From Bacillota bacterium (GTDB lineage: Bacteria; Bacillota; Clostridia; Oscillospirales; Oscillospiraceae): a stretch of 64,000 nt of DNA. Every line of letters begins with the position of its first letter. Within the stretch, counting starts at the first letter, position 1. Positions 2,585 through 37,839 of the stretch are shown here, one piece after another. The translations under genes and the position numbers were made by a program. The stretch lies in assembly GCA_021199635.1 (NCBI GenBank), contig JAJQHS010000030.1, forward strand, positions 27,898 through 91,897, read 5' to 3'. A model generated the notes under the pieces. It was given only the letters and a program-made list of their open reading frames with translations, was not told where the DNA came from and made no database searches.

Positions 2585-4366
2585 ATGATATTCGGCAAAT
2601 ATATCAACCGTTATTATCTGCGGTACGCCTGGCTGCTGCTGATCGGCCTGGCGGCGCTGACCGGCGTGGATTACCTGCAGCTGGAGATCCCGGAGCTGTA
2701 CCAGATGGTGATCAACGGGCTGAATAACGGCGTCGTGGAGAAGGACGGCGTGATGCACACCTTCGACATGGATTTCCTGCTGGATTCCATCTGCATGCCC
2801 ATGGTGAAGATCATCCTGGCCATCGTGTTCTGCCGGTTCACCTGGCGGGTGACCATCTTCGGCGCCGCCATCCGGGTGGAGACCAACCTGCGGGACCAGA
2901 TGTTTGCCCACGCCGAGCAGCTCAGCCGGGAATATTACCAGGTGAACAAGGTGGGCAACCTGATGAGCCTGTTCACCAACGACCTGGACACGGTGCAGGA
3001 GTGCTACGGCTGGGGCTTCATGCAGTTTTTTGACGCGCTGATCCTCGGCTCCCTGGCTGTGAGCAAAATGTGGCGGATGAGCCACCTGCTCACCGTCCTG
3101 TCCCTGATCCCCATGGCGCTGCTGTTCGCCAGCGCCACCATCGTGGGCAAGTACATGACCCGGAAGTGGGAGTACCGGCAGGAGTGCTTCTCCCAGCTGT
3201 CCGACTTCTCCCAGGAGAGCTTCTCCGGCATCGCGGTGATCAAGGCCTTCGTGAAGGAGGCCAAGGAGCTGATGGCATTTGAAAAGCTGAACCGGGAGAA
3301 TGAGGTGGCCAACGTGGACTACACCAAGTCCTCCGTGCTGCTGCGCATCCTGGTGACCACATTCGTGGAAAGCGTCATGTGCATCATCCTGGGCTACGGC
3401 GGCTATCTGGTGTACACCGGCACCTTCAACGCCGGGCAGCTGATGGAGTTCATCGGCTATTTCAACGCCATCATCTGGCCGATCATGGCCATCTCCGAGC
3501 TGATCGACATGACCTCCCGGGGCAAGGCCTCCCTGAAGCGGATCAGCGAGCTGCTGGACGCGCCGGTGGACGTGAAGGACCGGGAGGGCGTCACCGACCT
3601 GGAAAATATCCAGGGCAAGATCGAGTTCCGGCACCTGACCTTCCGCTACCCCGACGGGGAATTTGACTCCCTGCGGGACGTGTCCTTCACCGTCCAGGCC
3701 GGGGAAAATATCGGCCTGGTGGGGAAAACCGGCTCCGGCAAGACCACATTGGTGGACCTGATCCTGCGCACGTACAACGTGCCGGACGGCACCATCTTCA
3801 TCGACGACCAGGACGTGAACAGCGTGTCCATCCGCTCCGTGCGGGACGGCTGCGCCTACGTGCCCCAGGATAACTTCCTGTTCTCCGACACCATCGAGAA
3901 CAACATTTCCTTCGGCATCTCCCAGCGGGACAGCGGCGCTGTGGTGCGGGCGGCGGAGCTGGCGGACGTCCACAGCAATATCCGGGAATTCCAGCATGGC
4001 TACCAGACCGTCCTGGGCGAGCGGGGCGTGACCGTGTCCGGCGGGCAGAAGCAGCGCATCTCCATCGCCCGGGCGCTGATGAAGGATTCCCCCATCCTGA
4101 TCCTGGACGATTCCGTTTCCGCCGTGGACACCCAGACGGAGCGGGCCATCCTGGACAATCTGCGCGCCACCCGGGCGGGCAAGACCACCATCCTCATCGC
4201 CCACCGCATTTCCACCATCGAGCAGATGGATAAAATCCTGTTCATCGAGGATGGCGCCGTGGCCGCCTTCGGCACCCACGAAAACCTGTACGAAACCAAC
4301 CGGGACTACCGCAAGATGGTAGACCTGCAGCGCCTGGAGGAGGAAGGAGGCCAGCACAATGGATGA
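2585..4366 (+). CDS. ABC transporter permease/ATP-binding protein (exporter half-transporter, first of pair)
   Basis: 593 aa. N-terminal 6-TM domain, Walker A GKTGSGKTT, signature VSGGQKQR, Walker B ILILDD. Overlaps the next gene by 8 nt. Confidence 0.92.
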   Translation: MIFGKYINRYYLRYAWLLLIGLAALTGVDYLQLEIPELYQMVINGLNNGVVEKDGVMHTFDMDFLLDSICMPMVKIILAIVFCRFTWRVTIFGAAIRVETNLRDQMFAHAEQLSREYYQVNKVGNLMSLFTNDLDTVQECYGWGFMQFFDALILGSLAVSKMWRMSHLLTVLSLIPMALLFASATIVGKYMTRKWEYRQECFSQLSDFSQESFSGIAVIKAFVKEAKELMAFEKLNRENEVANVDYTKSSVLLRILVTTFVESVMCIILGYGGYLVYTGTFNAGQLMEFIGYFNAIIWPIMAISELIDMTSRGKASLKRISELLDAPVDVKDREGVTDLENIQGKIEFRHLTFRYPDGEFDSLRDVSFTVQAGENIGLVGKTGSGKTTLVDLILRTYNVPDGTIFIDDQDVNSVSIRSVRDGCAYVPQDNFLFSDTIENNISFGISQRDSGAVVRAAELADVHSNIREFQHGYQTVLGERGVTVSGGQKQRISIARALMKDSPILILDDSVSAVDTQTERAILDNLRATRAGKTTILIAHRISTIEQMDKILFIEDGAVAAFGTHENLYETNRDYRKMVDLQRLEEEGGQHNG

Positions 4367-6245
4367 GTATCTTCCGCTTCTGATCCCGGGAGCCGTGATC
4401 GGTGTATTCACCATCCTGTTCCTGGCGGCCTACTTTGTGCTGCGCCAGCGCACGAAGAACGATACCAGCGAGCGCCGCATGACCGACAGCGAGATCATCC
4501 GCCGGCTCCTGCGCTACGCCGCACCTTATAAGAAGCAGTTCGCCCTGATTTTCGCCATCATGCTGGTGTCCATCGTCTATGACGTGGCGTCGCCGCTGAT
4601 CATCGCGGAGATCCAGGGGACCATCAAGGCCAGCTTCGAGCTGAGTCAGCTTTTCTCCCTGGTGGCGCTTTACGGCGGAATGCTGGTGGTTTCCATGGTC
4701 TGCACCTATTTCCAGACCCTGCTCCTGCAGAAAATCGGCCAGAAGATCCTGTCCCAGCTCCGGCTGGACACCTTCACCCACATCGAGAGCCTCTCCCACG
4801 AGCAGCTGAACAATATCCCCGTGGGCAAGCTGGTCACCCGGGTCAGCAACGACCCCAACGCCATCAGCTACCTGTTCACCAACATCCTGGTGACGCTGGT
4901 GAAAAATTCCCTGGTGATCATAGGCGTGCTGATCGCCATGCTGATGCTCAACTATGCCCTGACGCTGATGGTGCTGTGCTTCGTGCCGTTTTTGGTGATC
5001 TTCACCCTGGTATTCCAGAAATTCTCCCGGCACGTCCACCGCAGCGTGAACAACACCCGGACGGACGTGAACACCTTCCTGTCCGAGAACCTTTCCGGCA
5101 TGAAGATCACCCAGATCTTCAACCAGGAGGGCCGGCGGATGTCGGATTTCCTGGTGCGCAGCAAGAAGCTGGAGCGGGCCAAGTTCAGCCGGACCTTCGT
5201 ATTCGGCATTTTCCGCCCAATGGTGTATATGCTGTTCGTCACATCGAACCTGTTCCTGTTCTACATCGGCTGCAAGGGCTATATCCAGGATACCACCTTC
5301 CTGGGGCAGACCATCACCAGTGAGATCGTGGTGGCGTTCTACATGTACATCTCCAAATTCTTCAACCCCATCCAGACCCTGGCGGAGCAATTTGATATGC
5401 TGGAGCAGTCCTTCGCCTCCGCGGAGAAGATTTTCCTGATCATGGACATGGTCCCGGAGATCCAGGACGAGCCGGACGCCATGGACCTGGACGAGATCCA
5501 GGGGGAAATCGAGTTCCGGGACGTGTGGTTCGCCTACAAGCCCGGCGAATGGGTGCTCAAGGGCGTATCGTTCCATGTGCTGCCCAAGCAGACCGTGGCA
5601 TTTGTCGGCGCCACCGGCTCCGGCAAGACCACCATCCTCAGCCTGATCTGCCGGAATTACGACATCCAGAAGGGGCAGATCCTGATCGACGGCATTGACA
5701 TAAAGAAGATCAAGATTGCCTCCCTGCGGCGGCATTTCGGCCAGATGCTCCAGGATGTGTTCCTGTTCTCCGGGGACATCCGCAGCAATATCCTGCTGCG
5801 CATGGAGGGCGTTTCCGACGAGGAGGTCATGGAGGCCTGCCGCTACGTCAACGCCGATACCTTCATCAACCGGCTGGACAACGGCCTGGACGAGGTGGTT
5901 CGGGAGCGGGGCAACAATTTCTCCGCCGGGCAGCGGCAGCTGCTCAGCTTCGCCCGGACGATCATCCATAAGCCTTCGGTGATGATCCTGGACGAGGCCA
6001 CCGCCAATATCGACACGGAGACAGAGGTGCTGATCCAGGACTCCCTGGAGAAGATGAAGAACATCGGCACCATGCTCATCGTCGCCCACCGGCTTTCCAC
6101 CATCCAGCACTCGGACAATATCATCCTGCTGTCCCATGGGCAGATCCTGGAGCAGGGCAGCCACCAGCAGCTGCTCCACCTGAAGGGCCGGTACTACCAG
6201 CTGTACACCCTGCAATACGACAAGCAGCAGCTCCAGCAGAGCTGA
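4359..6245 (+). CDS. ABC transporter permease/ATP-binding protein (exporter half-transporter, second of pair)
   Basis: 628 aa. TM domain plus GATGSGKTT, FSAGQRQL and VMILDEAT motifs; likely heterodimer partner of 2585-4366. Confidence 0.92.
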   Translation: MDEYLPLLIPGAVIGVFTILFLAAYFVLRQRTKNDTSERRMTDSEIIRRLLRYAAPYKKQFALIFAIMLVSIVYDVASPLIIAEIQGTIKASFELSQLFSLVALYGGMLVVSMVCTYFQTLLLQKIGQKILSQLRLDTFTHIESLSHEQLNNIPVGKLVTRVSNDPNAISYLFTNILVTLVKNSLVIIGVLIAMLMLNYALTLMVLCFVPFLVIFTLVFQKFSRHVHRSVNNTRTDVNTFLSENLSGMKITQIFNQEGRRMSDFLVRSKKLERAKFSRTFVFGIFRPMVYMLFVTSNLFLFYIGCKGYIQDTTFLGQTITSEIVVAFYMYISKFFNPIQTLAEQFDMLEQSFASAEKIFLIMDMVPEIQDEPDAMDLDEIQGEIEFRDVWFAYKPGEWVLKGVSFHVLPKQTVAFVGATGSGKTTILSLICRNYDIQKGQILIDGIDIKKIKIASLRRHFGQMLQDVFLFSGDIRSNILLRMEGVSDEEVMEACRYVNADTFINRLDNGLDEVVRERGNNFSAGQRQLLSFARTIIHKPSVMILDEATANIDTETEVLIQDSLEKMKNIGTMLIVAHRLSTIQHSDNIILLSHGQILEQGSHQQLLHLKGRYYQLYTLQYDKQQLQQS

Positions 6246-6261
6246 GCCCGTCACACATACT

Positions 6262-6293
6262 CAGGGAGGGGATTTCCCCTCCCTGATTTTTTT
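6262..6293 (+). terminator. Rho-independent terminator after the ABC pair
   Basis: Stem CAGGGAGGGG/CCCCTCCCTG, loop ATTT, then ATTTTTTT. Confidence 0.85.
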
Positions 6294-6302
6294 CGGCAAA
6301 AG

Positions 6303-6332
6303 CAAAAAAGGGGAGGGCATCCGCCCTCCCCT
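6303..6332 (-). terminator. Rho-independent terminator closing the phage-like cassette
   Basis: Stem AGGGGAGGGC/GCCCTCCCCT, followed on the minus strand by TTTTTTG, 10 nt past the stop at 6342. Confidence 0.8.
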
Positions 6333-6341
6333 GAAATGTCC

Positions 6342-7058
6342 TCAGCCCGCCGTTCGCGCCGCGGCGCGGAACGTGCGGTACTGCCGGGTGCCGTCCCCGT
6401 CCGTCACCCGTTTGCGCTCGGTCAGCACGCAGCCGGTGAAGGTATCCGTCATGCCGTCCCGGGTCAGCACCGCCGTGCAGCTGCCCGAGATCTCCGCAGG
6501 CTCGGTGACGCCGGTGGGGAAATATTCCTCCACCGTGCAGTACCAGTAGGCATTGCTGATGGAGTATACCGGCGCGCCGTCGGAATCCGTCTGGGCGGTG
6601 ATGCTGTCCCGCTCGTCCTGCTCCGCGGTGAAGCCCACCGCGTACTCCAGCGTGTTCCCCGCCAGCGTCACGGTGAAGGTGGACGGCTCCGGCACGGTCA
6701 CCGCCGTCCAGGAATCCGGCAGCGCCTGGCCATAGTACACGGCCAGCACCGGGATGCGGCACATATTCATCTCGCCGTCGAATTCATAGGCCTCCTGGCG
6801 GCACACCGCGCCCGCCTCCGCCAGCACCTGGCAGGCCAGCAGTGCCGTCTTCTCGCAGCGCTCCCCGCTGATGTTATAGGCGGCCACGATGTCCACCCGC
6901 ACGGTGATCTCGCCGGTGCCCTGGTCCATCTGCTGCAGGCTCACCGCCGCCACAGGGGTCTGGATGGCCATCATCCGCTCCGCAGGATACGCCCGCGCGG
7001 CGCGCACACCGCCGTCCTGCAGGGTCTGGATCACCTCATCTACGATGGATAGCCCCAA
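6342..7058 (-). CDS. Phage-cassette protein of unknown function (last gene, in the position of head-tail joining / neck proteins)
   Basis: 238 aa. TTG start preceded by GGGGAGG, overlaps the upstream gene by 19 nt. I recognise no motif; the assignment is by position only. Confidence 0.55.
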   Translation of the reverse strand: MGLSIVDEVIQTLQDGGVRAARAYPAERMMAIQTPVAAVSLQQMDQGTGEITVRVDIVAAYNISGERCEKTALLACQVLAEAGAVCRQEAYEFDGEMNMCRIPVLAVYYGQALPDSWTAVTVPEPSTFTVTLAGNTLEYAVGFTAEQDERDSITAQTDSDGAPVYSISNAYWYCTVEEYFPTGVTEPAEISGSCTAVLTRDGMTDTFTGCVLTERKRVTDGDGTRQYRTFRAAARTAG

Positions 7059-7390
7059 TTGTCTGCCTCCCCTCTGCGTTCACAGATGCCCCAGCACCCC
7101 ACCAGCGTATCCCGGCAGTACACCGGCTCCACCCGGCGGACCGTGTACCAGGTCTCGCCCACATAGAAAATATCCCCCTCCACCAGCAGCGGCTCCGCCG
7201 GGAGCAGCATGGTGTACTGGCTCCAGGGGATCTGCCCCACCGGGGACTGGACGATCTGCATATTCATCCGGCTCAGCGAGCCGGTATGCTGGACGCAGCC
7301 CCGGACGGTGAAATCCCCCGTCACCCGGCGGACGGTGATGGCCGTGCCGTAGCGGGTGAGGATGCTGTCCACCAGCGCCTTCATCCTCAC
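7040..7390 (-). CDS. Phage head closure / head-tail adaptor-like protein
   Basis: 116 aa. Size and position right after the connector gene fit. GTGA overlap with the upstream stop; an alternative ATG lies at 7384. Confidence 0.6.
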   Translation of the reverse strand: MRMKALVDSILTRYGTAITVRRVTGDFTVRGCVQHTGSLSRMNMQIVQSPVGQIPWSQYTMLLPAEPLLVEGDIFYVGETWYTVRRVEPVYCRDTLVGCWGICERRGEADNWGYPS

Positions 7391-7743
7391 ACCCCCATAA
7401 AGGAGAACCCGTCCCGCACATAGGGCAGCATCAGCATCTCCGCCTGGTAGCGCAGGCAGCAGGCCGCCGCGTTGGGGCTGCTGCGCCGGAGGGTCAGGTC
7501 GCCCAGCTGGATCTGCGCCATCTGGCCCACCTCATCCGTGTCCGACAGCGCCGCCAGGGCGTACAGGCTGGCGGCGGCGATGAAATCCGCCTTGCAGTCC
7601 TCCGGCGCGACACCCGGGCGCAGCTTCCGCCGCAGGGCGTTCTCCGATGCCCGGCAAAGCACCTCCAGCAGCGCGGTTTTCTCCTCCTCCAGGTCCTGGG
7701 CCAGCACCAGCGCCTGGGCGTAAATCTGCTCCGTCAGCGTCAT
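7387..7743 (-). CDS. Phage head-tail connector (gp6-like DNA-packaging/connector protein)
   Basis: 118 aa helical protein directly downstream of the capsid gene, with an ATGA stop/start overlap at 7740-7743. Confidence 0.6.
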   Translation of the reverse strand: MTLTEQIYAQALVLAQDLEEEKTALLEVLCRASENALRRKLRPGVAPEDCKADFIAAASLYALAALSDTDEVGQMAQIQLGDLTLRRSSPNAAACCLRYQAEMLMLPYVRDGFSFMGV

Positions 7744-8765
7744 ACGTTCAGGACCGCGGCGGCGCCGTCGCAGATTTTGCCGAATCCGGCGATGGCGGTG
7801 ATGGCGGCGCGCTCCAGCTGCCGGTCGATGAGCTTGTCATACTCCACCAGCACGTCCCCGGCGCGCACCTGCTCCAGCGCGTAGCGGCTGTCCAGGCCGA
7901 TGATGACCCCGTCGGCCACGGCGCTGGTGCGGTGCAGATGGGCGCCCAGGGGGGTGGTCAGCTTGCCGGTGCCCTGGAAATTCAGCCCGGTCAGGGGGTT
8001 CTGCAGCTCGGGGATCTTCAGCATCTGCGTCATGGTGGCGGTGGAGCAGAGCAGGGTATTCATGGTGTACGGGTCAAACTGCCCCCAGAATTCCACCATC
8101 TGGCCATATTCCAGGGTCCCCACGGTGCCGGAGATGGGGCTGGTGCCCACGGTGTACTGCACGGCGGCATTCTCGTTGCCGTCGCCGCTGATCAGCACAT
8201 TCACCGCGTCCGCCAGCTGTTGCTTCTGGATATACGCGCCGATCTGCCGGAGCATCACGCCGAACAGGTCCAGCTTCTGGAAGCGCAGCGCCTCGTAGCT
8301 TGCCACCAGCATCCTGCCACGCTTGCTCAGGGAGATCAGGTGCTCCTTGGTGGACACTTCGGTGGTGGGGATCTCCTCGCCCTCCGCCACGTCCTGCAGC
8401 GCCTTGTCCGCGTCCGTGGGGTTGGAGTAGATGGAGCGGTAGTCCAGGGAGTCGATCACCGTGGTGGTAGCGGTGATGGCGGGCAGGATATCGTTTTCCT
8501 CCATGCCCTGGCGGACGGAGCGGGCGATGTACTCCGGGAACAGCACCGCCGAATCCATGGTGCGGAAAAATTTCTCCACAGGGGAGGAGCCGGCGCCCTT
8601 CACCCGGATGCCGAAGCGCTTCAGCTGCCGCTGGAACGCGTCCGTGCCCTCCAGCGCCGTGCCCCGGTAGTTCTCGCTGGGGTCCAGGGATTCCAGCACC
8701 TGGGTGAAGCTCATGCCGGACTGGCGATACATGCCCTTTTCCAGTTTCAGATTGTCGTAGCCCAT
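7740..8765 (-). CDS. Phage major capsid protein (HK97-fold family)
   Basis: 341 aa. Length, position after the protease gene and overall sequence resemble HK97-type major capsid proteins. Confidence 0.8.
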   Translation of the reverse strand: MGYDNLKLEKGMYRQSGMSFTQVLESLDPSENYRGTALEGTDAFQRQLKRFGIRVKGAGSSPVEKFFRTMDSAVLFPEYIARSVRQGMEENDILPAITATTTVIDSLDYRSIYSNPTDADKALQDVAEGEEIPTTEVSTKEHLISLSKRGRMLVASYEALRFQKLDLFGVMLRQIGAYIQKQQLADAVNVLISGDGNENAAVQYTVGTSPISGTVGTLEYGQMVEFWGQFDPYTMNTLLCSTATMTQMLKIPELQNPLTGLNFQGTGKLTTPLGAHLHRTSAVADGVIIGLDSRYALEQVRAGDVLVEYDKLIDRQLERAAITAIAGFGKICDGAAAVLNV

Positions 8766-8830
8766 TTTTGTTTCCTCCTAGATTGAATAATTATGGCTTC
8801 CGGGGTTTTCCCGGCAAAACCTGAGAACGA

Positions 8831-9727
8831 TCAGATCAGAAATCCGATCTCCATATCCTCCCGCCGGCTCTGCGGCGGCAGGAGCTGGCGTGTGACCGGC
8901 AGGGACTCCGCCAGGCGTGCGTCCAGGGCGTCCCGCAGCTTTTCCAGGTCGCTGTGCCCCAGCTTGTCCGTGATGGCCCGCAGCACCGGTTCCTCCACGC
9001 CCAACTCCAGCCCCAGGCACAGCCGCACCACCTGGTCGCGGAGCTGCTTCTCGTACTGGCGCCCGGCCTGGGCCAGCGCGTCCAGCGCCCGGTATTCCGC
9101 CTGCGCGCCGAATTCCTCCGCCAGCGCCTTCAGCGCCGGGGCGCCGCGCCCCATGCCCTTGATCACGCCGGCCTCCCGCTGGGCGGGCACCGCCACGAAG
9201 GAAAATTCGTAGGCGTCCATCGGCTCTTTGAGGATCACGCTGCACATCTGCCCGTCGTAGCATTCGCCCTTCTGGTGGCCGCAGGTCCCGTAATCGCCGC
9301 CGCAGATGGAGCAGACCGCCCGCCCCATGGCGCAGCCCACGGAAACCTCCTTCTTGATGCCCGCCTCGATGTCCGCGATGATCTCCTCCGCCTGGCCGCC
9401 CCGGCGGATGTACGCCCATGCCTTGATATAGCTGACGCCCGCATCCTGCACCACCTGGGTCTGGAAAATGCGGGCCACCTGGCCGTCGCTGGTCCATTTG
9501 TGGTCCAGGATCCCGGTTTTGCCCAGGAACAGCCGGGCAAGCTCCGGCAGGGCGGCGGTATCGAACCGCTCCCCGTCCCGGTCGATCTGGTCGTCGCACA
9601 GCCGCAGGGAGAAGACATACACCTGCTGCGCCGTCAGGCGGGTGCGGGCCTGGGCGTTGATGGCCTCCAGCTGTGCCGGGGTGGGCACGCCGCTGGCGCC
9701 CACCTGGCTCTCCTTCTTGATTTCCAT
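8831..9727 (-). CDS. Phage prohead protease with Cys-rich insertion and C-terminal coiled-coil (scaffold-like) region
   Basis: 298 aa. GILDHKW and EVSVGC segments resemble the His and Ser regions of prohead serine proteases. Contains a cluster of 6 Cys plus 1 His. RBS GGAGGA precedes the ATG. Confidence 0.65.
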   Translation of the reverse strand: MEIKKESQVGASGVPTPAQLEAINAQARTRLTAQQVYVFSLRLCDDQIDRDGERFDTAALPELARLFLGKTGILDHKWTSDGQVARIFQTQVVQDAGVSYIKAWAYIRRGGQAEEIIADIEAGIKKEVSVGCAMGRAVCSICGGDYGTCGHQKGECYDGQMCSVILKEPMDAYEFSFVAVPAQREAGVIKGMGRGAPALKALAEEFGAQAEYRALDALAQAGRQYEKQLRDQVVRLCLGLELGVEEPVLRAITDKLGHSDLEKLRDALDARLAESLPVTRQLLPPQSRREDMEIGFLI

Positions 9728-9743
9728 GTTCCGTTCCTCCGTT

Positions 9744-10883
9744 TCATTTTCTGGCTTCGCTGCGGTATTTCTCCGCCTGCGCCTTGTAAAGCTCCGCCTG
9801 CGCCTCCTCGGTGATGTCCTGCAGGCTGATGTCGTCCCACGCGATCTCCACCTGGGGGTCCAGCCCCTCCAGCGCCAGGTAGGTGCGGCAGATTTTCCGC
9901 ACCACCGGCTCCACGGAGCGCCGCAGCGCCCACAGCTCGGAGGTCAGGATGTCCGCCTGCTGGGTGCTCATCCGCTCGGTGGTGCTCCAGCTCAGCCCCA
10001 GCAGGAAGGGCGGCAGGCCGGTTTTCGCCACCAGCTGCTCCAGGATCTGCCGCACGGGCACCTCGGAGTCCAGTATGGGCGCGTCCGCGCCGATGGCCTG
10101 GATCTGCACATCCCCCACCGCCACAAAATCCCGGACCGTGCCGTTCTTCCCGTCCTCCATGGCGCGGCTCCATTCCCGGGCGATCTGCCCGCTGCGCTCC
10201 TGGGCGGCGGCTGGGTCCATGCCCTCCGCGCCCTGGCACACCACGCTGTAGCGGATGTTGCCCGCCCGCTCCCAATTGGTGCCGATGGAGGCGTAGATTT
10301 TCATCAGGATGTCCGCCAGGAAGGGCATTCCCCGGAACAGGCTGACGCCGTAGGGATGCGCCGCCTCCGGATTCAGCGTGGTGAACAGCAGCAGGTTCTG
10401 ATAGGGCAGGGGATGCAGCCGCCCATTTTCATCCGGGCCGTACAGCACCGTTTCCATGGGATTGTCCGCCTCCTCCATTTGCAGCTGGGTCACGTCGCCC
10501 CAGAACAGCCCCCGCAGGCGCCCGCCCTGCAGCACCATCTCCCCCACGGAGCGGCCGTAGACCAGCAGGCTGTCCATATAGCCGGACAGGAAGCTGTCGA
10601 TCCCCACCTGCCCCCGGCCGCAGGGCACGCTTTTCAGGAACTGCTCCAGCTGCGCCTGCGCCGCGTGGCTCCGGCAGCGGGGCGTGAAGCCGCCGGACAG
10701 CCGCACCAGCTTGCCCACCGCCGCGTCCAGCACGGGGATGGCCTCCCGCAGCTGCTGATAGACCCGCTCCTCACCGGCGCCCAGGGGGATGAAGCCCTTC
10801 AGCGTGCCAAAGGGGTGCCCCCGGTCCCCCCGCAGCTGGCAGGCCTTCGCCGCCAGCGCCGCCTGATTCCGTTTTTTTGCCAA
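9744..10883 (-). CDS. Phage portal protein
   Basis: Sits between terL and the protease gene. I prefer the TTG at 10883 (RBS GGAAGGAG 8 nt upstream, 17 nt after the terL stop). The maximal ORF extends to another TTG at 10934. Confidence 0.8.
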   Translation of the reverse strand: MAKKRNQAALAAKACQLRGDRGHPFGTLKGFIPLGAGEERVYQQLREAIPVLDAAVGKLVRLSGGFTPRCRSHAAQAQLEQFLKSVPCGRGQVGIDSFLSGYMDSLLVYGRSVGEMVLQGGRLRGLFWGDVTQLQMEEADNPMETVLYGPDENGRLHPLPYQNLLLFTTLNPEAAHPYGVSLFRGMPFLADILMKIYASIGTNWERAGNIRYSVVCQGAEGMDPAAAQERSGQIAREWSRAMEDGKNGTVRDFVAVGDVQIQAIGADAPILDSEVPVRQILEQLVAKTGLPPFLLGLSWSTTERMSTQQADILTSELWALRRSVEPVVRKICRTYLALEGLDPQVEIAWDDISLQDITEEAQAELYKAQAEKYRSEARK

Positions 10884-10899
10884 TGTCGTTTCTCCTTCC

Positions 10900-12156
10900 T
10901 CATGCTTTCCGCCGCGCCACCGCCCGGGCGGCAAAGCCGCCGGACTGCCGCCCCAGCACTGTGGCCACGAAATAGCGCATATCGTCCATGGCGTGGTCGT
11001 TTTCCTTCTTCACCCGGTCCTTTTCCCCGGTGCGCAGGTCCCAGACATATTCGTCCATCTCCCGCAGGCAGTCGGCGCAGCTGTCGCAGATGACGATTTT
11101 CCCCGATTTCAGGCAGTCGGAGGTGAGCCGGATGCCGGACAATACGTCATTTTCCGCCTTGCGCACCGGGTAGCCCCGCCGGCGCAGGGTCTCCAGGAAG
11201 CTGGCGGCGGAGGGGTCCACGATCACGGCGGTCAAATGCCGGTCCCCGGCCAGGCGCCCCAGGGCGTCGGCGTATTCCCCGTCGGTCATCTGCCGCTGCT
11301 GCACCCGGGAGTTGAAGTAGAATTCCTCCACCCGGTACCACACGCCGCCCTGCAGCCCCCACAGCCCCATGGATGTGGGGTTCACCGTGCCATAGTCGCA
11401 GGAGATGTACCACTGCTCCCATGGCCCCTCCGGCACCGGGCGCACCAGATCCGGGCCGAAGAAATCGTACACCCGCCCCTCCGCCTGCACCCACTGCCCC
11501 AGCACGAACCGGCGGTAGAACACCCCGGTATACAGCCGCTGGTAGCGCTGGCGGATCGGCTCCGTCAGGGAGGGATTGTCCGCCATGGTGAAGTGCAGGT
11601 GCAGGCAGTTCCGCCGCTCCGCCTCTAATATCCAGCTGCGGTAGAACCAGTGCCCCGGACCGGCGGGATTGCAGTTGAACCACAGGCGGCTGCCGGGCAC
11701 GGAGCAGCGGGCGCAGGCCTGCTCCACAAAGCTGCGGGGCATCAGCGCTACCTCGTCCAGCAGCACCCCGGCGAAGGTGACGCCCTGGATCAGGGCGGCG
11801 GAGCTTTCGTCCCGCCCGCCGAAGATGTAGAAATCGTTCCGCCGCCCCCGGAACGTGACGGTGACCCGGTTTTCCGACCGTTTCTCCTTCCATTTCCCGC
11901 CCAGCCCCTCCAGCCGGGGCAGGATCTCCGACAGCACGTTCCGCCGCAGGGACGCGATGGTCTTGCCGCACACGCCGAAGCGTTTCCCGTCGAAGCAGGT
12001 CATCGCCCACAGGAAGAAGGAAAGCCCCATGGCCAGGGTCTTCCCCGAGCGCACCGCCCCGTCGCACACGATGGCCTCCCGGTCCCGGTAGGCGCTGCCC
12101 GGCATCCACCAGGTCAGGACGGTTTTCTGCTTCGGGGAGAAGCCCGCGTAGGTCAT
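10900..12156 (-). CDS. Phage terminase large subunit (PBSX/Terminase_3-like)
   Basis: 418 aa. Walker A DGAVRSGKT, Walker B LLDEVA, C-terminal nuclease-like ISCDYG. ATGA overlap with terS. Confidence 0.9.
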   Translation of the reverse strand: MTYAGFSPKQKTVLTWWMPGSAYRDREAIVCDGAVRSGKTLAMGLSFFLWAMTCFDGKRFGVCGKTIASLRRNVLSEILPRLEGLGGKWKEKRSENRVTVTFRGRRNDFYIFGGRDESSAALIQGVTFAGVLLDEVALMPRSFVEQACARCSVPGSRLWFNCNPAGPGHWFYRSWILEAERRNCLHLHFTMADNPSLTEPIRQRYQRLYTGVFYRRFVLGQWVQAEGRVYDFFGPDLVRPVPEGPWEQWYISCDYGTVNPTSMGLWGLQGGVWYRVEEFYFNSRVQQRQMTDGEYADALGRLAGDRHLTAVIVDPSAASFLETLRRRGYPVRKAENDVLSGIRLTSDCLKSGKIVICDSCADCLREMDEYVWDLRTGEKDRVKKENDHAMDDMRYFVATVLGRQSGGFAARAVARRKA

Positions 12157-12479
12157 TCTCCCTCACCGCCGCCCTGCAGCGCCTCTAGGAAGGACTCCAG
12201 GTCCTCCCCGTTTTCCCCTGCCAGCTCCGCCAGCATCTCCAGCGCCCGGAGCCTGTCCACCAGACGCAGCTCCACGGTGCCCTTGTCGTTGCGCTTCAGC
12301 TCCGTCAGCAGGCTCAGGTCCAGCGTCTCCGTGCCCACAGCGTCCTCCATCACCAGCTTTACGCAGTCATTGGCCTGCCCGAAGGCCAGCTCCGCCAGGC
12401 GGCGGGCCACATCCTCCCGGGTGAGCTTCCCCGCCCGGATGCGTCGGCGCAGTCCGCCGGGTAAATTTTTTCCTTGCAT
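12153..12479 (-). CDS. Phage terminase small subunit
   Basis: 108 aa (MQGKNLPGGLRRR...). ATG at 12479 with RBS AGGGAGG. Only the C-terminal third of track ORF 12153-13355 is used; the rest is antisense to the decarboxylase gene. Confidence 0.7.
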   Translation of the reverse strand: MQGKNLPGGLRRRIRAGKLTREDVARRLAELAFGQANDCVKLVMEDAVGTETLDLSLLTELKRNDKGTVELRLVDRLRALEMLAELAGENGEDLESFLEALQGGGEGE

Positions 12480-12502
12480 GGCGATCCTCCCTTTCATCCC
12501 AA

Positions 12503-12544
12503 GCCCGAAAAGAAACGGAAGTTGCCCTCCGCGGGGCAACCTCC
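12503..12544 (-). terminator. Terminator-like hairpin in the leader immediately upstream of terS
   Basis: Minus strand reads GGAGGTTGCCC-CGCGGA-GGGCAACTTCC then GTTTCTTTTCGGG: a 10/11-bp stem plus U-rich tail, 24 nt before the terS ATG. Confidence 0.45.
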
Positions 12545-12597
12545 GTGAAAAATCAAAATTTCTTATCCCATCCCCGGCGGGAATCCGGAAAAATGGG

Positions 12598-21800: not shown

Positions 21801-21883
21801 TGGTGCGGGCATGGGGACTCGAACCCCAACGCGAAAGCACAAGAACCTAAATCTTGCATGTCTACCAATTCCATCATGCCCGC
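21801..21883 (-). tRNA. tRNA-Leu (anticodon TAG), CCA encoded
   Basis: Cloverleaf folds by hand: acceptor GCGGGCA/TGCCCGC, anticodon arm CAAGA-TTTAGGT-TCTTG, long variable arm, T arm TGGGG-TTCGAGT-CCCCA. Confidence 0.9.
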
Positions 21884-26659: not shown

Positions 26660-27100
26660 CTAGCGTTTCCGCTTTTTCCATTCCGTCACCGCCAGAGCGT
26701 CGCAGCGGTTATTCATCGGATTGTCCGCGTGCCCTTTGACCCAGTGGCAGCGCAGGCTATGCACCTCCGCCAGGGACAGCAGCGTCTCCCACAGGTCGGG
26801 GTTCAGCGCGGGCTGCTTATCGCCCTTGACCCAGCCCCGGCTGCGCCAGCCCTTGGCCCAGCCCTTCTGCAGCGCGTCGATCACATATTTGCTGTCGGAG
26901 TACAGCTCCACCACGCACGGCTCCTTCAGCGCCTGGAGCCCCCGGATCACGGCGGTCAGCTCCATGCGGTTATTGGTGGTGCTGTCCTCGCCGCCGGAAA
27001 GCTCCTTGCGCAGCCCGCCGTACTCCAGGATCGCCCCCCAGCCCCCGGGGCCGGGGTTGCCGGAGCAGGCGCCGTCGGTGTAGAGGGTCACGGTTTTCAT
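26660..27100 (-). CDS. rnhA: Ribonuclease HI
   Basis: 146 aa. [16 protein letters not shown] and the other RNase H1 catalytic motifs. ATGA overlap with the gyrA stop. Confidence 0.93.
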
Positions 27101-29592
27101 ACCTGGCTCTCCACCGGCTCCACCCGCTCCATGCTCACCAGGCGGCTGCCCGCCTCAATGCGCATGACGATCACGCCCTGGACGTCCCGCTTGTACACGT
27201 TCACGTCCGACGCGGGAATGCGGATGATGACGCCGCCCTCCTCGATCAGGATCACGTCGTCCTGCTCGCTGACCACCCGGCACCCGGCGATGGCGCCGGT
27301 TTTCGGGGTGATGTTGTAGTTCTTCAGGCCCTTGCCGCCCCGGCTCTGGGGCACCTTCTCCCCATTGGGGCCGGTGCGCAGGTATTCCTGCAGCGCGGTG
27401 CGCTTGCCGTAGCCCCGCTCGGTGACGGTGAGCAGGGTCTTGCCCGCCTCCGCCTTCTCCGCGCCGATGACGTAGTCCCCCTCGGCCAGGGTGATGCCCT
27501 TCACGCCGGAGGCATCCCGCCCCATGGGGCGCACATCATTCTCGTTGAAGCAGATGGCCATGCCCTGGCGGGTAGCCAGGAGGATATTATCGTTGCCATT
27601 GGTGCGCAGCACATTCACCAGCTGGTCGCCCTCGTCCAGGGTGATGGCACGGATGCCGCCTTTGCGGTTGGTTTTCAGGCCGATGAATGGGATGCGCTTG
27701 ACGGTGCCGTTCCGGGTGGCCATCAGCAGGTACTCATTTTCGTCAAATTCCCGGGTGACCACCATGGCGGTGACGGATTCCCCCGGCTCCAGGGGCAGCA
27801 CATTCACGATGGCGGTGCCCCGGGCGGTGCGCCCGGCCTCCGGGATCTGGTAACCCTTCCGGTGGTGCACACGCCCCCGGTCGGTGAAGAACAGTATATG
27901 GTCATGGGTGGAGGCCACGTTCAGGCTCCTGACGAAGTCCTCCTCCTTCAGGTTCTGGCCGTTGACGCCCCGGCCGCCCCGGCTCTGGGTGCGGTAGGTG
28001 TCCGCGGGCATCCGCTTGATGTAGCCCTGGCTGCTGATGGTGAAGATGCAGGTCTCCTCCTCGATCAGGTCCTCCACGTCCAGCTCGTCCTCGATGTCCT
28101 GGATCTCGGTCTTTCTGCTGTCGCCGAATTTATCCCGGATTTGGATCAGCTCCTCCCGGAGGACAGCCTTCAGCTTCTCCGGATTTTCCAGCAGCTCCAG
28201 GAAATTGGCGATCCGCTGCTGCAATTCCTCGTATTCGCCCTGCAGCTTCTCCCGGTCCAGGCCCTGCAGCGCCTTCAGCCGCATATCCAGGATGGCCTGG
28301 GCCTGGATGTCGTCCAGCGCGAAGCGATCCATCAGCCGCTGCTTGGCGTCGTCATAGGCGGAGCGGATGATGTGGATGACCTCGTCGATATTGTCCTGGG
28401 CGATGATCAGTCCCTCCAGCAGATGGGCGCGCTCCCGGGCCTTGCGCAGGTCGAATTCCGTCCTGCGGCGGAGGACCTCCTCCTGGAATGCCAGATATTC
28501 GTCCAGGATCATCCGCAGGGACAGCACCTTCGGCTGCTTCTGGTTGTCCACCAGCGCCAGCATAATCACGCCGAAGCTGGATTGCAGGGCGGTCTGCTGG
28601 AACAGGTTATTCAGAACCACCTGGGGATTGGCTTCCTTCTTCAGCTCGATGACGATGCGCATGCCGTTCCGGTCGGTTTCGTCCCGCAGGTCGGAGATGC
28701 CCTCCAGCCGCTTGTCCTTCACCTGCTCGGCGATGTTCTTGATCATCTGCCGCTTATTCACCTGGTAGGGAAGCTCGCTGACGATGATCCGCATCCGGTC
28801 CTTGCCGAATTCCTCGAATTCCGTCCGGGCGCGCACCACGATCTTGCCCCGGCCGGTGGCATAGGCGGCGCGGATGCCGCTGCGGCCCATGATGATGCCC
28901 CCGGTGGGGAAATCCGGGCCGGAGATATGCTCCATCAGGTCGGTCAGGGTGCATTCCGGGTCGTCCAGCACCGCCACGCAGGCGTTGATGACCTCCGTCA
29001 GATTGTGGGGCGGGATGTTGGTGGCCATGCCCACGGCAATGCCGGAGGAGCCGTTGACCAGCAGATTGGGGAACCGGCTGGGCAGGACCCGCGGCTCCTT
29101 GCGGCTCTCATCGAAGTTGGGGTCCCAGTCCACGGTGTCCTTGTCGATGTCCCGGAGCATTTCGTTGGAAATTTTGGAAAGCCGCGCCTCGGTGTACCGG
29201 TAGGCGGCAGGGGGGTCGCCGTCCACGGAACCGAAGTTTCCGTGTCCGTCCACCAGCATATAGCGCATGGAAAAGTCCTGCGCCAGGCGCACCATGGCGC
29301 TGTAAACCGACGCGTCGCCGTGGGGATGGTACTTACCCAGCACATCGCCCACGCAGGTGGCGGATTTTTTGAACGGCTTATCGGAGCTCAGGCCGCTTTC
29401 GTACATGGTGTACAGGATGCGGCGGTGGACGGGCTTCAGGCCGTCCCGCACATCCGGCAGCGCCCGGCTGACGATGACCGACATGGCGTATTCAATATAG
29501 GATTTTTCCATTTCCTCCACCAGGTGGGATTCCGTGATCACCTGGTCGGGAAAGGCAATGTCCTCAGGTTTGTAGCTGCGATTGTGTGCCAA
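27097..29592 (-). CDS. gyrA: DNA gyrase subunit A
   Basis: 831 aa. Catalytic-Tyr region [10 protein letters not shown] and C-terminal beta-pinwheel repeats. TTG start with GGAGG 8 nt upstream. Confidence 0.97.
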
Positions 29593-29629
29593 TCAAGACA
29601 CCTCCAGAATTTGGGATTTTTTGATAGGG

Positions 29630-29680
29630 ATGAAACATGCGGTGTGGGCACACGGCCCTGCCGGGACGGGCAGCGGATCC
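29630..29680 (+). repeat. Dispersed hairpin repeat, partial copy C in the gyrB-gyrA spacer
   Basis: GCGGTGTGGGCACACGGCCCTGCCGGG matches the repeat core and right flank; the left arm is truncated or diverged. Confidence 0.65.
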
Positions 29681-29719
29681 GCTCTCCCTCACCGGTGCGT
29701 GGGCCTTGCCCGGGCATTC

Positions 29720-31648
29720 TCAAAAATCAATATTCATCGCGTATTTTGCGTTTTTCTCGATCCAGTCCTTCCGGGGCTCCACGGCCTCGCCCATCAGCAC
29801 GGTGAACACCTCGTCCGCACGGATGGCATCGTCCAGGGTGATCCGCCGCAGGCTGCGCTGCTCCGGGTCCATGGTGGTCTCCCACAGCTCGTGGGGGTCC
29901 ATCTCGCCCAGGCCCTTGAACCGGGAAATGTCCACCTTCGCATTGGGATTGTCCGCGCGCAGCTTTGCGGAAATTTCGTCCCGCTGCTCATCGGAATAGG
30001 CCACCTGCACGGTTTTGCCCCGGGTCAGCTTGTACAGCGGCGGCACGGCGGAGTACACGTAGCCGTTCTCGATCAGCGGCCGCATATAGCGGAAGAAGAA
30101 GGTCAGCAGCAGCGTGCGGATATGGGCGCCGTCCACGTCCGCATCCGCCATGATGATCACCTTGTGGTACCGCAGCTTATTCAGGTCAAATTCCTCGCCG
30201 ATCCCGGCGCCCAGCGCCACGATCAGCGGATACAGCTTATCGTTGCCGTAAATTTTATCCGCCCGCGCCTTCTCCACGTTCAGCATTTTGCCCCACATGG
30301 CCAGGATCGCCTGGAACCGGGAATCCCGCCCCTGGATGGCGGAGCCGGCGGCGGAATCGCCCTCGACGATGTAAATTTCGCACAGGCTGGGGTCCCGCTC
30401 GTTGCAGTCCTGGAGCTTGTCCGGCATTTGGCCGGATTCCAGGCCGGTTTTCCGGCGGATGGAGTCCCGGGCCTTCCGGGCGGCCTCCCGGGCGCGGTTC
30501 GCCATCATGGCCTTGTCCAGCAGCACCTTCGCCGTCTGGGGATGCTCCTCCAGGTAGGTGGCCAGCTGGTCGCTGACGATCTGGTCCACCAGCGTGCGGA
30601 TGTAGGCGTTGCCCAGCTTGGCCTTGGTCTGCCCCTCAAACTGGGCGTCGGTGAGCTTGACGGAGATCACGGCGGTGATGCCCTCCCGGCAGTCGTCGCC
30701 GGAGACCTTGTCCTCCCCCTTGAGGATGCCGTTTTTCAGGCCGTAGGCGTTCATCACCCGGGTCAGCGCGGTTTTGAAGCCGGTTTCGTGCATGCCGCCC
30801 TCCGGCGTGTGGACGTCGTTGGCGAAGGACAGGAGAAATTCGTTGTACCCATCGTTATACTGCAGGGCGATCTCCGCGGAGGCGTCCCCCTTCGCGCCCT
30901 TCAGATAGATCACATCCTCGTGGACGGGAGTCTTGTTCCGGTTGCAGAAGGTGACAAATTCCCGGATGCCGCCCTCATAGCACATGGTGTCGGCGACCGG
31001 CTCCTCCCCCCGGGCGTCGGTGATGGTGATGGAGAGCCCGGCGTTCAGGAAAGCCTCCTCCCGCATGCGGGTGTGGAGGGTATCGTAGTCATACTCCGTG
31101 GTGTCGAACATCTCCGGGTCCGGCTGGAAGGTGACCTCGGTGCCGGTTTTGTCGGTTTTTCCGACAATTTCCATTTCCTGGGTGATATTGCCCCGGGAGA
31201 AGCGCATCTGGTAAATATTCCCATTTTTATGCACCCGCACCTGCATCCATTCGGACAGCGCGTTCACCACGGAGGCGCCCACGCCGTGCAGACCGCCGGA
31301 AACCTTGTAGCCGCCGCCGCCGAATTTGCCGCCGGCGTGGAGCACGGTGTACACCACCTCCAGGGCGGGTCTGCCGGTCTGGGGCTGGATGTCCACGGGG
31401 ATGCCCCGCCCATCATCGGTGACGGTGACGGAATCCCCGGGGTTGATGGTGACGGTGATATGCTTACAGTAGCCTGCCAGCGCCTCATCGATGGCGTTGT
31501 CCACGATCTCATAGACCAGATGGTGCAGACCGCTGGCGGAGGTGGAGCCGATATACATGCCTGGCCGTTTTCTTACCGCCTCCAGGCCCTCCAGGACCTG
31601 GATCTGCTCCGCGCCGTATTCCTGTGTTACCTTCATTTCGTCTGACAT
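29720..31648 (-). CDS. gyrB: DNA gyrase subunit B
   Basis: 642 aa. GHKL ATPase motif YEIVDNAIDE and Toprim motif EIYIVEGDSAAGS. Confidence 0.97.
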   Translation of the reverse strand: MSDEMKVTQEYGAEQIQVLEGLEAVRKRPGMYIGSTSASGLHHLVYEIVDNAIDEALAGYCKHITVTINPGDSVTVTDDGRGIPVDIQPQTGRPALEVVYTVLHAGGKFGGGGYKVSGGLHGVGASVVNALSEWMQVRVHKNGNIYQMRFSRGNITQEMEIVGKTDKTGTEVTFQPDPEMFDTTEYDYDTLHTRMREEAFLNAGLSITITDARGEEPVADTMCYEGGIREFVTFCNRNKTPVHEDVIYLKGAKGDASAEIALQYNDGYNEFLLSFANDVHTPEGGMHETGFKTALTRVMNAYGLKNGILKGEDKVSGDDCREGITAVISVKLTDAQFEGQTKAKLGNAYIRTLVDQIVSDQLATYLEEHPQTAKVLLDKAMMANRAREAARKARDSIRRKTGLESGQMPDKLQDCNERDPSLCEIYIVEGDSAAGSAIQGRDSRFQAILAMWGKMLNVEKARADKIYGNDKLYPLIVALGAGIGEEFDLNKLRYHKVIIMADADVDGAHIRTLLLTFFFRYMRPLIENGYVYSAVPPLYKLTRGKTVQVAYSDEQRDEISAKLRADNPNAKVDISRFKGLGEMDPHELWETTMDPEQRSLRRITLDDAIRADEVFTVLMGEAVEPRKDWIEKNAKYAMNIDF

Positions 31649-31655
31649 AATCCCT

Positions 31656-33042: not shown

Positions 33043-33046
33043 GCTT

Positions 33047-37724: not shown

Positions 37725-37731
37725 CCGAAAT

Positions 37732-37808: not shown

Positions 37809-37839
37809 TCCGCCGGAGGCGGTCAGTAGCAGGGAAGAT

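Follow-up and report, generated by a model that had tools for sequence, protein, structure and literature searches.

We believe, judging by the sequence, that the eight-gene cassette described here is on balance a domesticated, trans-regulated capsid and packaging machine, most likely encoding a new tail-less GTA-like particle derived from a PBSX-like (myovirus-type) element. It appears to be fixed in the chromosome and maintained by selection, being kept in at least 80 gut Oscillospiraceae species and probably in about 180. Domestication was among the readings offered in the original prediction and is supported by the intact loci (80/80), the purifying selection, the tracking of flanks and the TerL motifs reported below.

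Results

The cassette occupies positions 6342-12479 of the window (the whole stretch of 64,000 nucleotides that was analysed); all its features given below are on the minus strand. As originally described, it consists of eight co-directional, full-length ORFs in 6.1 kb with coupled junctions, which overlap by 4 nt at 12153-12156, 7740-7743 and 7387-7390 and by 19 nt at 7040-7058. The flanks are also those described: an ABC exporter pair with its own terminator at 6261-6286 and, on the opposite side, a divergent oxaloacetate-decarboxylase operon. The proposed distance of approximately 22 kb from oriC fits the position of dnaA (34456-35955), and a search for direct repeats flanking the cassette found none, i.e., att-like repeats are absent as was first thought. 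Codon usage is near that of the host (RSCU r 0.971 vs 0.988 ± 0.005 for host gene subsets), with a GC content of 66.9% in the cassette vs 62.5% in the host. The cassette is closed by an intrinsic terminator at 6309-6332, a 10-bp stem followed by TTTTTT, found by the terminator scan and in the sequence. This terminator and the leader hairpin at 12515-12546 had both been missed at the first reading.

Family assignments stand for five of the eight genes: terS, terL, the portal, the major capsid protein (MCP) and the "protease". The product of terS (12153-12479, 108 aa) matches the Terminase_2 profile weakly and only at positions 60-128 of 141; the TerS of tail-less cassettes lacks profile positions 1 to about 50-60. 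In tailed relatives TerS is 135-155 aa long, mostly matches positions 3-128 and contains the motif FxxAYLxTMDxxxAA. By these alignments, the tail-less cassette TerS has lost the N-terminal DNA-binding (HTH) region, which most tailed relatives retain. Absence of the N-terminal DNA-binding domain has been proposed as the defining trait of a GTA-type TerS (Sherlock et al. 2019). The large subunit, terL (10900-12156, 418 aa), belongs to the PBSX family (TIGR01547, 177.6 bits vs the cutoff of 105), has Terminase_6N/6C domain matches and matches the large terminase of PDB 5oe8/5oea (E 4.6e-142). At least 96% of 75 sequences retain its Walker A and Walker B motifs and nuclease residues Asp254/314/391.

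The portal gene (9744-10883, 379 aa) matches phrog_30703 at 1.9e-147, and over 7,762 relatives of it were counted in the database at E<=1e-10; its start is the TTG at 10883, preceded by the RBS GGAAGGAGA, and a longer ORF start was rejected. The next gene (8831-9727, 298 aa), located between the portal and MCP genes, matches phrog_16951 at 1.5e-97, a PHROG without function annotation. Its family has invariant His76 and Ser129 and a Cys/His cluster, and one of 39 members weakly matches Peptidase_S78_2 (XkdF). Mainly from its position, we presume that it is a putative prohead protease with a C-terminal scaffold-like region. MCP (7740-8765, 341 aa) matches PF25209 Phage_capsid_4 at 2.1e-16 and phrog_3922 at 3.6e-102. 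Gene g6 (7387-7743, 118 aa) has no match in Pfam, PHROG or PDB and is conserved at the same position in every locus; this position suggests a head-tail adaptor-like protein. The position of g7 (7040-7390, 116 aa) is likewise conserved across loci and is the main reason to consider it a probable head-completion or head-tail attachment protein; of 40 family members, 16 give a weak match to PF05354 Phage_attach (best E 0.0024) and one hits Phage_HCP.

The last gene, g8 (6342-7058, 238 aa), changes the original picture of a head gene set without tail genes: the head set is there, but g8 is derived from a tail. Structure prediction and profile search, which had been proposed as a check, revealed its two-domain composition. 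The AF2 model (pLDDT 79.6) has an N-domain (about 1-113) and a C-domain (about 128-237), and a Foldseek search with it hit, among others, the phage 812 neck, T5 tail-tip complex, tail tubes, Hcp, lambda gpU and DUF3168. Of the two domains, the first could be aligned to the 161-aa gene that follows g7 in the tailed relative L139 (hhalign 95.3%, E 2.3e-8) and the second to the tube-position protein of another, L161 (85.6%, E 5.5e-6); tblastn supports both correspondences. The g8 family comprises 396 clusters at 50% identity, and full-length fusions make up most of the matches listed. The protein joins a tail-completion/terminator-like N-domain to a C-domain with the tail-tube fold.

Relatives with 55-63% portal identity have the same head module followed by a sheath, tube, LysM/XkdP-like hub and baseplate-J-like wedge; these tailed relatives have no phage early genes upstream of terS. 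The lineage descends from PBSX-like elements with contractile tails, and all that is left of the tail module is one fused neck/tube protein, g8. Alternatively, the cassette might be the head and packaging locus of a multi-locus GTA, with tail, receptor-binding and lysis genes elsewhere, so that the particle is not really tail-less. Since the cassette has no lysis gene, at least lysis must be encoded elsewhere; GTAs are typically multi-locus, with parallels in operon II of FpGTA and the accessory loci of RcGTA, and g8 together with a hub-like protein, g9, present in 29 of the 80 relatives, could act as a docking interface. In FpGTA, baseplate, fibre, holin and endolysin genes lie in a second operon at a distance of 125 kb. 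However, no homologue of the sheath, baseplate or hub of the tailed relatives was found in the 64-kb window, nor, g9 excepted, in the 21-kb loci of the 80 species; the deletion of the sheath and the fusion of terminator and tube also argue against retention of the ancestral contractile tail. We consider this alternative possible, with perhaps one chance in a handful.

The leader of the cassette is conserved as well. A terminator-like scan and comparative covariation revealed a hairpin at 12515-12546, with a 13-bp stem, a 6-nt loop and the invariant core TTGC/GCAA, followed by TTTCTTTT. It is located 41 nt upstream of the terS ATG in the window and precedes terS by 39-42 nt in each of the 72 loci with upstream sequence, marking the 5' boundary of the conserved unit. 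In the alignment, 86% of cells are paired vs 40-45% in slid controls; double-change cells number 99 vs 36 in shuffles (0/500); and 9 of 13 pairs covary, including the outer stem. RNAalifold predicts the hairpin independently; no Rfam family matches it. According to the alignment of loci, the segment between the hairpin and terS (12480-12514) contains a U-rich tract, followed by the conserved GGNTGAAAGGGAGG (Shine-Dalgarno), which lies 6-8 nt from the ATG; T59/G60/A62 of leader alignment A4 are invariant, and in the MFE fold of the window sequence the U-tract pairs with the Shine-Dalgarno region. Because the hairpin is not followed by a U-run in every clade, a role as terminator cannot be general.

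The cassette matched 178 genomes, from which 80 species genomes, those of Faecousia and other Oscillospiraceae, were retrieved and compared. The comparison of synteny and of selection, suggested originally, gave the following: the eight genes are intact and in identical order in all 80 loci, and dN/dS is 0.11 for MCP, 0.12 for terL, 0.15 for the portal and 0.17 for the protease/scaffold gene, with 0.24 for terS, 0.35 for g7, 0.40 for g6 and 0.24-0.50 for non-core genes overall, dS being near saturation (0.8-1.5) and the ratios therefore approximate. Complete MCP copies in these loci are 339-343 aa long (341 in nearly all) and 78-91% identical.

The downstream flank is common to 48 of 53 locus pairs with core identity of at least 84% and to approximately 10% of pairs with core identity below 82%. 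Flank sharing thus tracks cassette divergence, and the position is stable among close species. Different clades have unrelated host genes at the flanks; this diversity between deeper clades could be explained by mobility as well as by rearrangement. The head genes abut host genes and no others are linked to them, which had suggested the inert remnant of a recently deleted prophage. We find this hardly credible: all genes are intact in 80 species, MCP retains its length and identity, dN/dS is 0.11-0.5, and the catalytic residues and regulatory leader are conserved. Recent deletion is refuted by the intact order in 80/80 loci, purifying selection, shared flanks and TerL motifs; neither a complete prophage at the site nor frameshifts or relaxed selection were observed.

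The original prediction also considered a satellite stripped of its control module. Such a minimal cf-PICI-like element would form its own heads, package itself from a pac-like hairpin near terS and use helper-phage tails. Its terS, terL, portal, protease, MCP and connector genes without a tail resemble the cf-PICI morphogenetic module, the conserved hairpin lies just upstream of terS, a frequent place for pac/cos sites, g8 could adapt heads to foreign tails, and relatives are found in about 398 IMG/VR contigs. Nonetheless, this reading is unlikely. The genes neighbouring the 80 loci include no recurrent integrase, excisionase, primase/replication, regulatory, tail or lysis families, and the nearest-neighbour Pfam families seen more than once are all housekeeping or transport (120 of 123 family representatives scanned). 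Att repeats are lacking, the position is stable among close species, TerS is without the DNA-recognition domain, the fixed spacing of the hairpin and the covariation of its outer stem fit RNA-level control, and the tailed relatives equally lack upstream early genes. One singleton serine-recombinase-like neighbour was encountered among the loci.

Discussion

Particle formation, the packaged content, regulation, release and uptake can, we infer, be pictured as follows. The leader hairpin would gate expression, and a trans-acting factor from elsewhere would be needed; a search of the 64-kb window and of the 7-10 kb around the cassette in the relatives revealed neither a regulator nor lysis genes. 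The portal, protease/scaffold and MCP would form a small HK97-type prohead. The PBSX-family TerL, with a TerS devoid of the sequence-recognition domain, would fill it by the headful mechanism with essentially non-specific, i.e., host, DNA. The portal vertex would be closed by g6, g7 and the g8 ring and, in 29/80 relatives, also by the hub-like g9 cap. The outcome would be a GTA-like particle with a stub of a tail or none, with lysis functions and any delivery device supplied from other loci. Short chromosomal fragments packaged in a GTA-like manner have been reported from gut Oscillospiraceae, without assignment to any gene cluster. No route is known by which a tail-less capsid would deliver DNA. 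A domesticated capsid could also serve for something other than transfer, such as phage interference by mis-packaging or tail hijacking, release of eDNA or a DNA-containing compartment; selection is strong with no visible delivery apparatus, and the stopper, the terminator-tube protein and, in some relatives, the hub cap would keep the particles closed. However, PADLOC defence models gave no match except one marginal, no defence or toxin gene is linked, and nothing points specifically to such roles, which we regard as quite improbable.

The domesticated machine that we favour can be compared with several known systems. In PBSX of Bacillus subtilis, one of the defective prophages or phage-like elements of Bacillota, the order is xtmA-xtmB-xkdE-xkdF-xkdG..., then the contractile tail. 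The cassette has a PBSX-family TerL and the same head gene order, a likeness that concerns the TerL family, gene order and contractile-tailed relatives. It differs in having no sheath, tape measure, baseplate, fibres or lysis genes, in the terminator and tube forming one protein and in the truncated TerS.

Capsid-forming PICIs (cf-PICIs) contain integrase, regulatory and replication modules and att sites, and their packaging is sequence-specific. Like the cassette, they have no tail and encode a terS, terL, portal, protease, MCP and connectors of their own (Alqurainy et al. 2023); the cassette has none of the three modules, no att sites and no TerS DNA-recognition region.

The alphaproteobacterial GTAs (RcGTA, CcGTA) are, like the cassette, structural clusters of phage origin that are inherited vertically and subject to purifying selection. 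They belong to an unrelated sequence lineage, retain a complete siphovirus-type tail and, unlike the cassette, are syntenic in genome position across genera. CcGTA is reportedly controlled by a trans activator/antiterminator.

FpGTA of Faecalibacterium prausnitzii, near-ubiquitous in its host genus, forms roughly 40-nm particles with no identifiable tail, and its authors infer podovirus-like affinities (Borodovich et al., Nat Commun 2026, PMC12946183). Both are elements of gut Clostridia without replication or integration genes, and in both operons the first gene is a terS with no obvious DNA-binding domain, after which come terL, portal and MCP. The MCP of FpGTA carries the annotation "N4-gp56 family", whereas that of the cassette is PF25209 with no N4-gp56 NCBIfam match; between portal and MCP, FpGTA has a Prp-like protein and the cassette a putative Ser/His protease-scaffold. 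The 8 genes of the cassette take up 6.1 kb vs 10 ORFs in 10.5 kb for FpGTA, and its ancestry is myovirus (PBSX-like) rather than podovirus-like. The cassette is not an orthologue of FpGTA.

Results

Eight co-directional ORFs lie on the minus strand of the window at 6342-12479, as the original prediction had it, and the gene overlaps listed there are real. The order is terS (12153-12479, 108 aa), terL (10900-12156, 418 aa), the portal gene (9744-10883, 379 aa), g4 for a putative protease or scaffold protein (8831-9727, 298 aa), the MCP gene (7740-8765, 341 aa), g6 (7387-7743, 118 aa) and g7 (7040-7390, 116 aa) for putative head-completion proteins, and g8 (6342-7058, 238 aa). The portal start is the TTG at 10883, with the RBS GGAAGGAGA ahead of the start codon.

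Most of the predicted family assignments are borne out by family searches. TerL matches Terminase_6N/6C and scores 177.6 bits (cutoff 105) against TIGR01547, the NCBIfam equivalog for the PBSX-family large terminase; its likeness to the crystallised large terminase 5oe8/5oea (E 4.6e-142, 477 bits over about 400 residues) offers a ready structural template. TerS has a weak Terminase_2 match, the portal matches phrog_30703 (1.9e-147), and the MCP matches PF25209 and phrog_3922 (3.6e-102). PDB sequence and profile searches with the MCP, portal, g4, g6, g7 and g8 gave no significant match, member-wise Pfam scans of g4 and g6 gave single weak matches only, and the PADLOC defence models gave no match beyond a marginal one. 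Exact-sequence contig look-ups with the window's own proteins returned one 7.4-kb Logan contig or nothing. In the phage collection the portal has only 6 matches, of which five are faecal "Bacteriophage sp." records without annotation, and g8 has none.

A search of the protein collection with the portal gave more than 7,762 relatives (E<=1e-10), in Oscillospiraceae and Ruminococcaceae MAGs; nearly all of the 120 matches listed are 73-80% identical. Many of these portal proteins (P0001 and relatives) are named "serine/threonine protein phosphatase" by NCBI, which looks like a propagated misannotation. A scan with one genome per GTDB species found a relative in 178 genomes; taken together, the cassette or a relative of it is present in more than 7,700 portal clusters (90% identity), these 178 species genomes and about 400 IMG/VR contigs. 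The best 80 of the 178 loci (designated by L numbers), mostly from Faecousia and other Oscillospiraceae, formed the comparative set.

The synteny proposed for checking in related genomes is kept in these 80 species loci: the order from terS to g8 is identical and the ORFs are full-length in 80/80 as far as the contigs extend, with the few exceptions of a split terL in L068 and a short g8 in L057 and L061, and g8 was missed by tblastn in several loci. Complete MCP copies have 339-343 aa, nearly all of them 341. Identity to the window's proteins is highest for the MCP (78-91%) and lowest for g8 (24-40%). The median pairwise Nei-Gojobori dN/dS, approximate because dS is 0.8-1.5, indicates purifying selection on all eight genes, with values of 0.11 for MCP, 0.12 for terL, 0.15 for the portal, 0.17 for the protease, 0.24 for terS, 0.35 for g7, 0.40 for g6 and 0.50 for g8. 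The Walker A and Walker B motifs and the three nuclease aspartates of TerL are kept in at least 96% of 75 sequences. The suggestion that the cassette is a deletion remnant is excluded by the intact genes at 80 species loci and by dN/dS of 0.11-0.50.

The neighbours of the cassette are those described originally, an ABC exporter pair on one side (2585-6245, ending in its own terminator at 6261-6286) and a divergent oxaloacetate decarboxylase operon on the other. The origin block dnaA-dnaN-(S4-like)-recF-gyrB-gyrA occupies 27097-35955, and the distance of about 22 kb from the cassette to the start of the dnaA-dnaN-gyrB-gyrA block is correct. Origin-type neighbours also occur near the cassette elsewhere (gidA in L082, yabP/divIC in L088). 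No direct repeats were found bracketing the cassette, in line with the original prediction of no att-like repeats. The expectation of host-like composition holds for codon usage, which differs little between the cassette and the neighbouring genes, but the GC content of the cassette is slightly higher. The window has a tRNA-Leu gene at 21801-21883 and a tRNA-Gly/Arg/His cluster at 37651-37917, and an Rfam scan of it found no family except tRNAs.

Heterodimeric ABC exporter pairs adjoin the cassette in thirteen other loci (L026, L027, L031, L033, L037, L044, L051, L053, L057, L058, L062, L068 and L069). They are only 25-37% identical to those of the window and stand up- or downstream in both orientations, which rules out the exporter pair as a part of the system; their recurrence is probably a coincidence, such paralogues being abundant.

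The annotated contexts differ wholly between clades: in one, GidA and Peptidase_S11 lie upstream of the cassette, and PGI and MatE lie downstream of it; in another, the upstream genes are MFS and GH127 and the downstream ones DUF975, rpsB and tsf; in a third, sugar-catabolism genes are found upstream, and S1, DivIC and YabP on the downstream side. The ORFs closest to the cassette, up to three from either side of every locus, make 123 families, 120 representatives of which were scanned with Pfam. Those seen more than once are all housekeeping or transport families (for example, ABC_tran, MatE, MFS and aminotransferases), and among the proteins flanking the 80 loci no integrase, regulatory or replication family is recurrent. 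One singleton of the 123 families resembles by eye a large serine recombinase with a resolvase-type N-terminus (candidate locus possibly L058:1746-3488); it is the sole recombinase-like neighbour seen. Among pairs of loci with terL and MCP DNA at least 84% identical, 48 of 53 have a common downstream flank and 21 of 30 a common upstream flank, and below 82% identity flanks are common to about 10% of pairs. Judged by this pattern, vertical descent with rearrangement appears to fit better than frequent hopping.

No regulator was seen in the cassette or in the 64-kb window. One clade has a convergent HTH_3 + TPR gene, of RRNPP/AimR-like architecture, directly downstream of the cassette, just after g8 (L008:14500-15270; also L005, L007, L013, L014, L023, L045 and L070, and present in L060). 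Its product may be a clade-specific regulator, and it has no homologue in the window.

The leader of the operon (12480-12546, minus strand) contains a hairpin at 12515-12546. In each of the 72 loci with upstream sequence it stands 39-42 nt 5' of the start of terS, bar apparent distances of 23-24 nt in seven loci, where the script most likely chose an upstream GTG/TTG start, and of 45 nt in L069. The inner stem TTGC/GCAA is invariant and the outer-stem pairs covary: over 13 stem pairs, 86% of cells are paired versus 40-45% with the partner column slid, double-sided changes number 99 versus 36 in shuffles (0/500), and 9 pairs have compensatory changes. RNAalifold predicted the hairpin independently, and the region upstream of terS matches no Rfam family. 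A U-run follows the hairpin in most clades, as in a terminator, and is missing in several; 3' of the hairpin and U-run stands a conserved Shine-Dalgarno block, GGNTGAAAGGGAGG, with which the U-tract can pair in the MFE fold of the window's leader. Going 5' from the hairpin, sequence conservation is lost after about 15 nt, which puts the edge of the unit at the hairpin; since the same palindrome is found upstream of terS in the tailed relatives described below, it is ancestral. We infer that the operon is controlled at this hairpin, which could act as a leader terminator dependent on an antiterminator supplied in trans or, alternatively, as an RNA or DNA hairpin bound by a protein. A sigma-54 or sporulation-sigma promoter within the palindrome was rejected by inspection, as there is no fit to the consensus sequences.

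Portal relatives in IMG/VR amount to about 398 contigs, and most of the 80 retrieved are 4-16 kb long; several "Bacteriophage sp." records in GenBank, of human faecal origin, also contain relatives of the cassette. Many of these "viral" contigs and records look like the chromosomal cassette rather than phage genomes. On contigs where portal identity is only 55-63%, the head module is the same and tail genes come after it, encoding a sheath (phrog_279, 2e-54), a tube-position protein, a LysM/hub protein, a baseplate hub and a baseplate wedge. Together these form a contractile tail of PBSX-like type, for which the tape-measure candidate has an unusually small size, about 130-170 aa. The tailed relatives examined (L137, L139, L142, L143, L145, L156, L158-L161 and L164-L168) start at terS as well, and upstream of it they have host genes (response regulator, LysR, PPDK-like) and no phage early genes; hence, the whole family may be domesticated. 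The whole 64-kb window contains no homologue of any of their tail proteins.

The claim that the cassette has its own head and packaging genes stands, but the claim that it has no tail genes does not, as structure matches make g8 tail-derived. At the sequence level g8 was without annotation; a single-sequence homologue search with it found only g8 itself and a profile was required. The AlphaFold2 model (50 homologues, pLDDT 79.6) has two domains; Foldseek matched it in the PDB to the phage 812 neck, the T5 tail-tip complex, many tail-tube and Hcp proteins and the lambda gpU terminator, and in BFVD to "tail protein", tail-tube and DUF3168 proteins. The N-domain aligns with a 161-aa gene product after g7 in one tailed relative (hhalign 95.3%, E 2.3e-8), and the C-domain with tube-position proteins (85.6%, E 5.5e-6; a second comparison is weaker, and there is tblastn support). 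From these alignments g8 is a fusion of a tail-completion or terminator-like protein with the tube protein, the intervening sheath gene having been deleted. The fused form is a large and old family: clustering at 50% identity gives 396 clusters, and of the 150 matches listed most are full-length (205-245 aa). A further gene, g9 (121 aa; PF07157 DNA_circ_N, E 8.3e-7), directly follows g8 in 29 of the 80 loci (L053:14783-15145, L058:10455-10817 and 27 others) but not in the window; g9 shares homology with the N-terminus of the LysM/hub protein that the tailed relatives encode. Apart from the g8 and g9 tail remnants, neither the 64-kb window nor the 21-kb loci from the 80 species showed any tail or lysis genes.

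TerS of the tailed relatives scanned has 135-164 aa; five of six match Terminase_2 above the gathering score, from position 3-7 to about 128, and the same five carry the N-terminal motif FxxAYLxTMDxxxAA. TerS of the tail-less cassettes has 107-108 aa and matches the profile from position 47-62 onward only. A longer N-terminus would not fit, since the conserved Shine-Dalgarno block and the hairpin come directly before the start of terS. In-frame upstream starts for terS were rejected, being unconserved across loci. Both the truncation of TerS and the reduction of the tail are found in the tail-less cassettes and neither in the tailed relatives.

Discussion

The cassette is an intact, chromosomally stable capsid-and-packaging operon maintained by selection; of the tail, only a terminator-tube fusion is left, and TerS is of GTA type. 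With moderate confidence, we predict that it would specify a GTA-like particle, tail-less or stub-tailed. The main alternative is that tail and lysis loci lie elsewhere in the genome. The cassette is a concrete candidate for the GTA-like packaging of Oscillospiraceae, a family to which no gene cluster has been assigned, and it shows a clear route by which a PBSX-like element has lost its tail, through sheath deletion, fusion of terminator and tube, and loss of the TerS DNA-binding domain. The conserved leader hairpin provides a handle for finding the regulator. Such loci also inflate virome catalogues as short "phage genomes".

A wider proposal, which we think less likely than not, is that a large clade of gut Oscillospiraceae keeps a GTA-type element that dispenses with the tail. 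The capsid would be filled with DNA and self-sealing, its portal shut by a ring of the terminator-tube fusion; the ancestor would be PBSX-like and contractile-tailed, and TerS would have lost its sequence specificity as well. If so, the cassette would be the source of the "GTA-like" short-fragment packaging reported in Oscillospiraceae gut viromes, and delivery would be unconventional, by competence uptake, by borrowed tails or not at all.

Our literature searches found no description of this cassette. With a PBSX-like element it shares the PBSX-family large terminase; the downstream contractile tail (sheath, tube, tape measure, baseplate) and the lysis genes of such an element are absent from the window. 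By TerL and the tailed relatives, the cassette belongs to the PBSX-like lineage, yet without its tail.

A satellite that borrows its tails is possible but disfavoured. A cf-PICI resembles the cassette in having its own head-morphogenesis and packaging genes without a tail, though g8 is tail-derived; the integrase and the regulatory and replication modules of a cf-PICI have no recurrent counterpart in the flanks of the 80 loci, and its att repeats have none around the cassette of the window.

Several generic traits of GTAs are present. The window and the 80 loci present a structural and packaging cluster among host genes, without genes for replication, integration or lysogeny control, and its maintenance in the clade by vertical descent under purifying selection is supported by the intact loci, by dN/dS of 0.11-0.50 and by flank sharing that tracks cassette divergence. 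GTA particles also take up random pieces of host DNA, each too short to encode the whole particle, and pass them to recipients, which for the cassette is a prediction. Loss of the N-terminal DNA-binding domain was proposed as the defining trait of GTA-type small terminases and as the explanation of random packaging (Sherlock et al. 2019), and TerS of the cassette lacks this sequence-specific domain.

GTA-like packaging of bacterial DNA is reported as the commonest capsid-mediated mode of mobilisation in human gut viromes, with Oscillospiraceae prominent. It was described without an identified cluster in Oscillospiraceae (Onthomonas; PMC12946183) and, in a 2026 preprint, in Pelethomonas. In FpGTA, the GTA of Faecalibacterium prausnitzii (Borodovich et al., Nat Commun 2026, PMC12946183), operon I comprises a terS that lacks a DNA-binding domain, followed by terL, portal, scaffold, MCP and other genes, and the genes for tail and lysis are in operon II, 125 kb away; particles measure about 40 nm and have no identifiable tail, and their DNA is about 8.5-9 kb (PMC12946183). 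The MCP of FpGTA is annotated as "N4-gp56 family", and a Prp-like protein stands between portal and MCP (supplementary file 4, PMC12946183), whereas the MCP of the cassette is PF25209 with no N4-gp56 NCBIfam match, and the Prp-like position is taken by a putative Ser/His protease-scaffold. These different families of MCP and maturation protein, compared through annotations, rule out the cassette as an FpGTA orthologue; the likeness is one of concept, and in concept FpGTA is the closest of the described systems.
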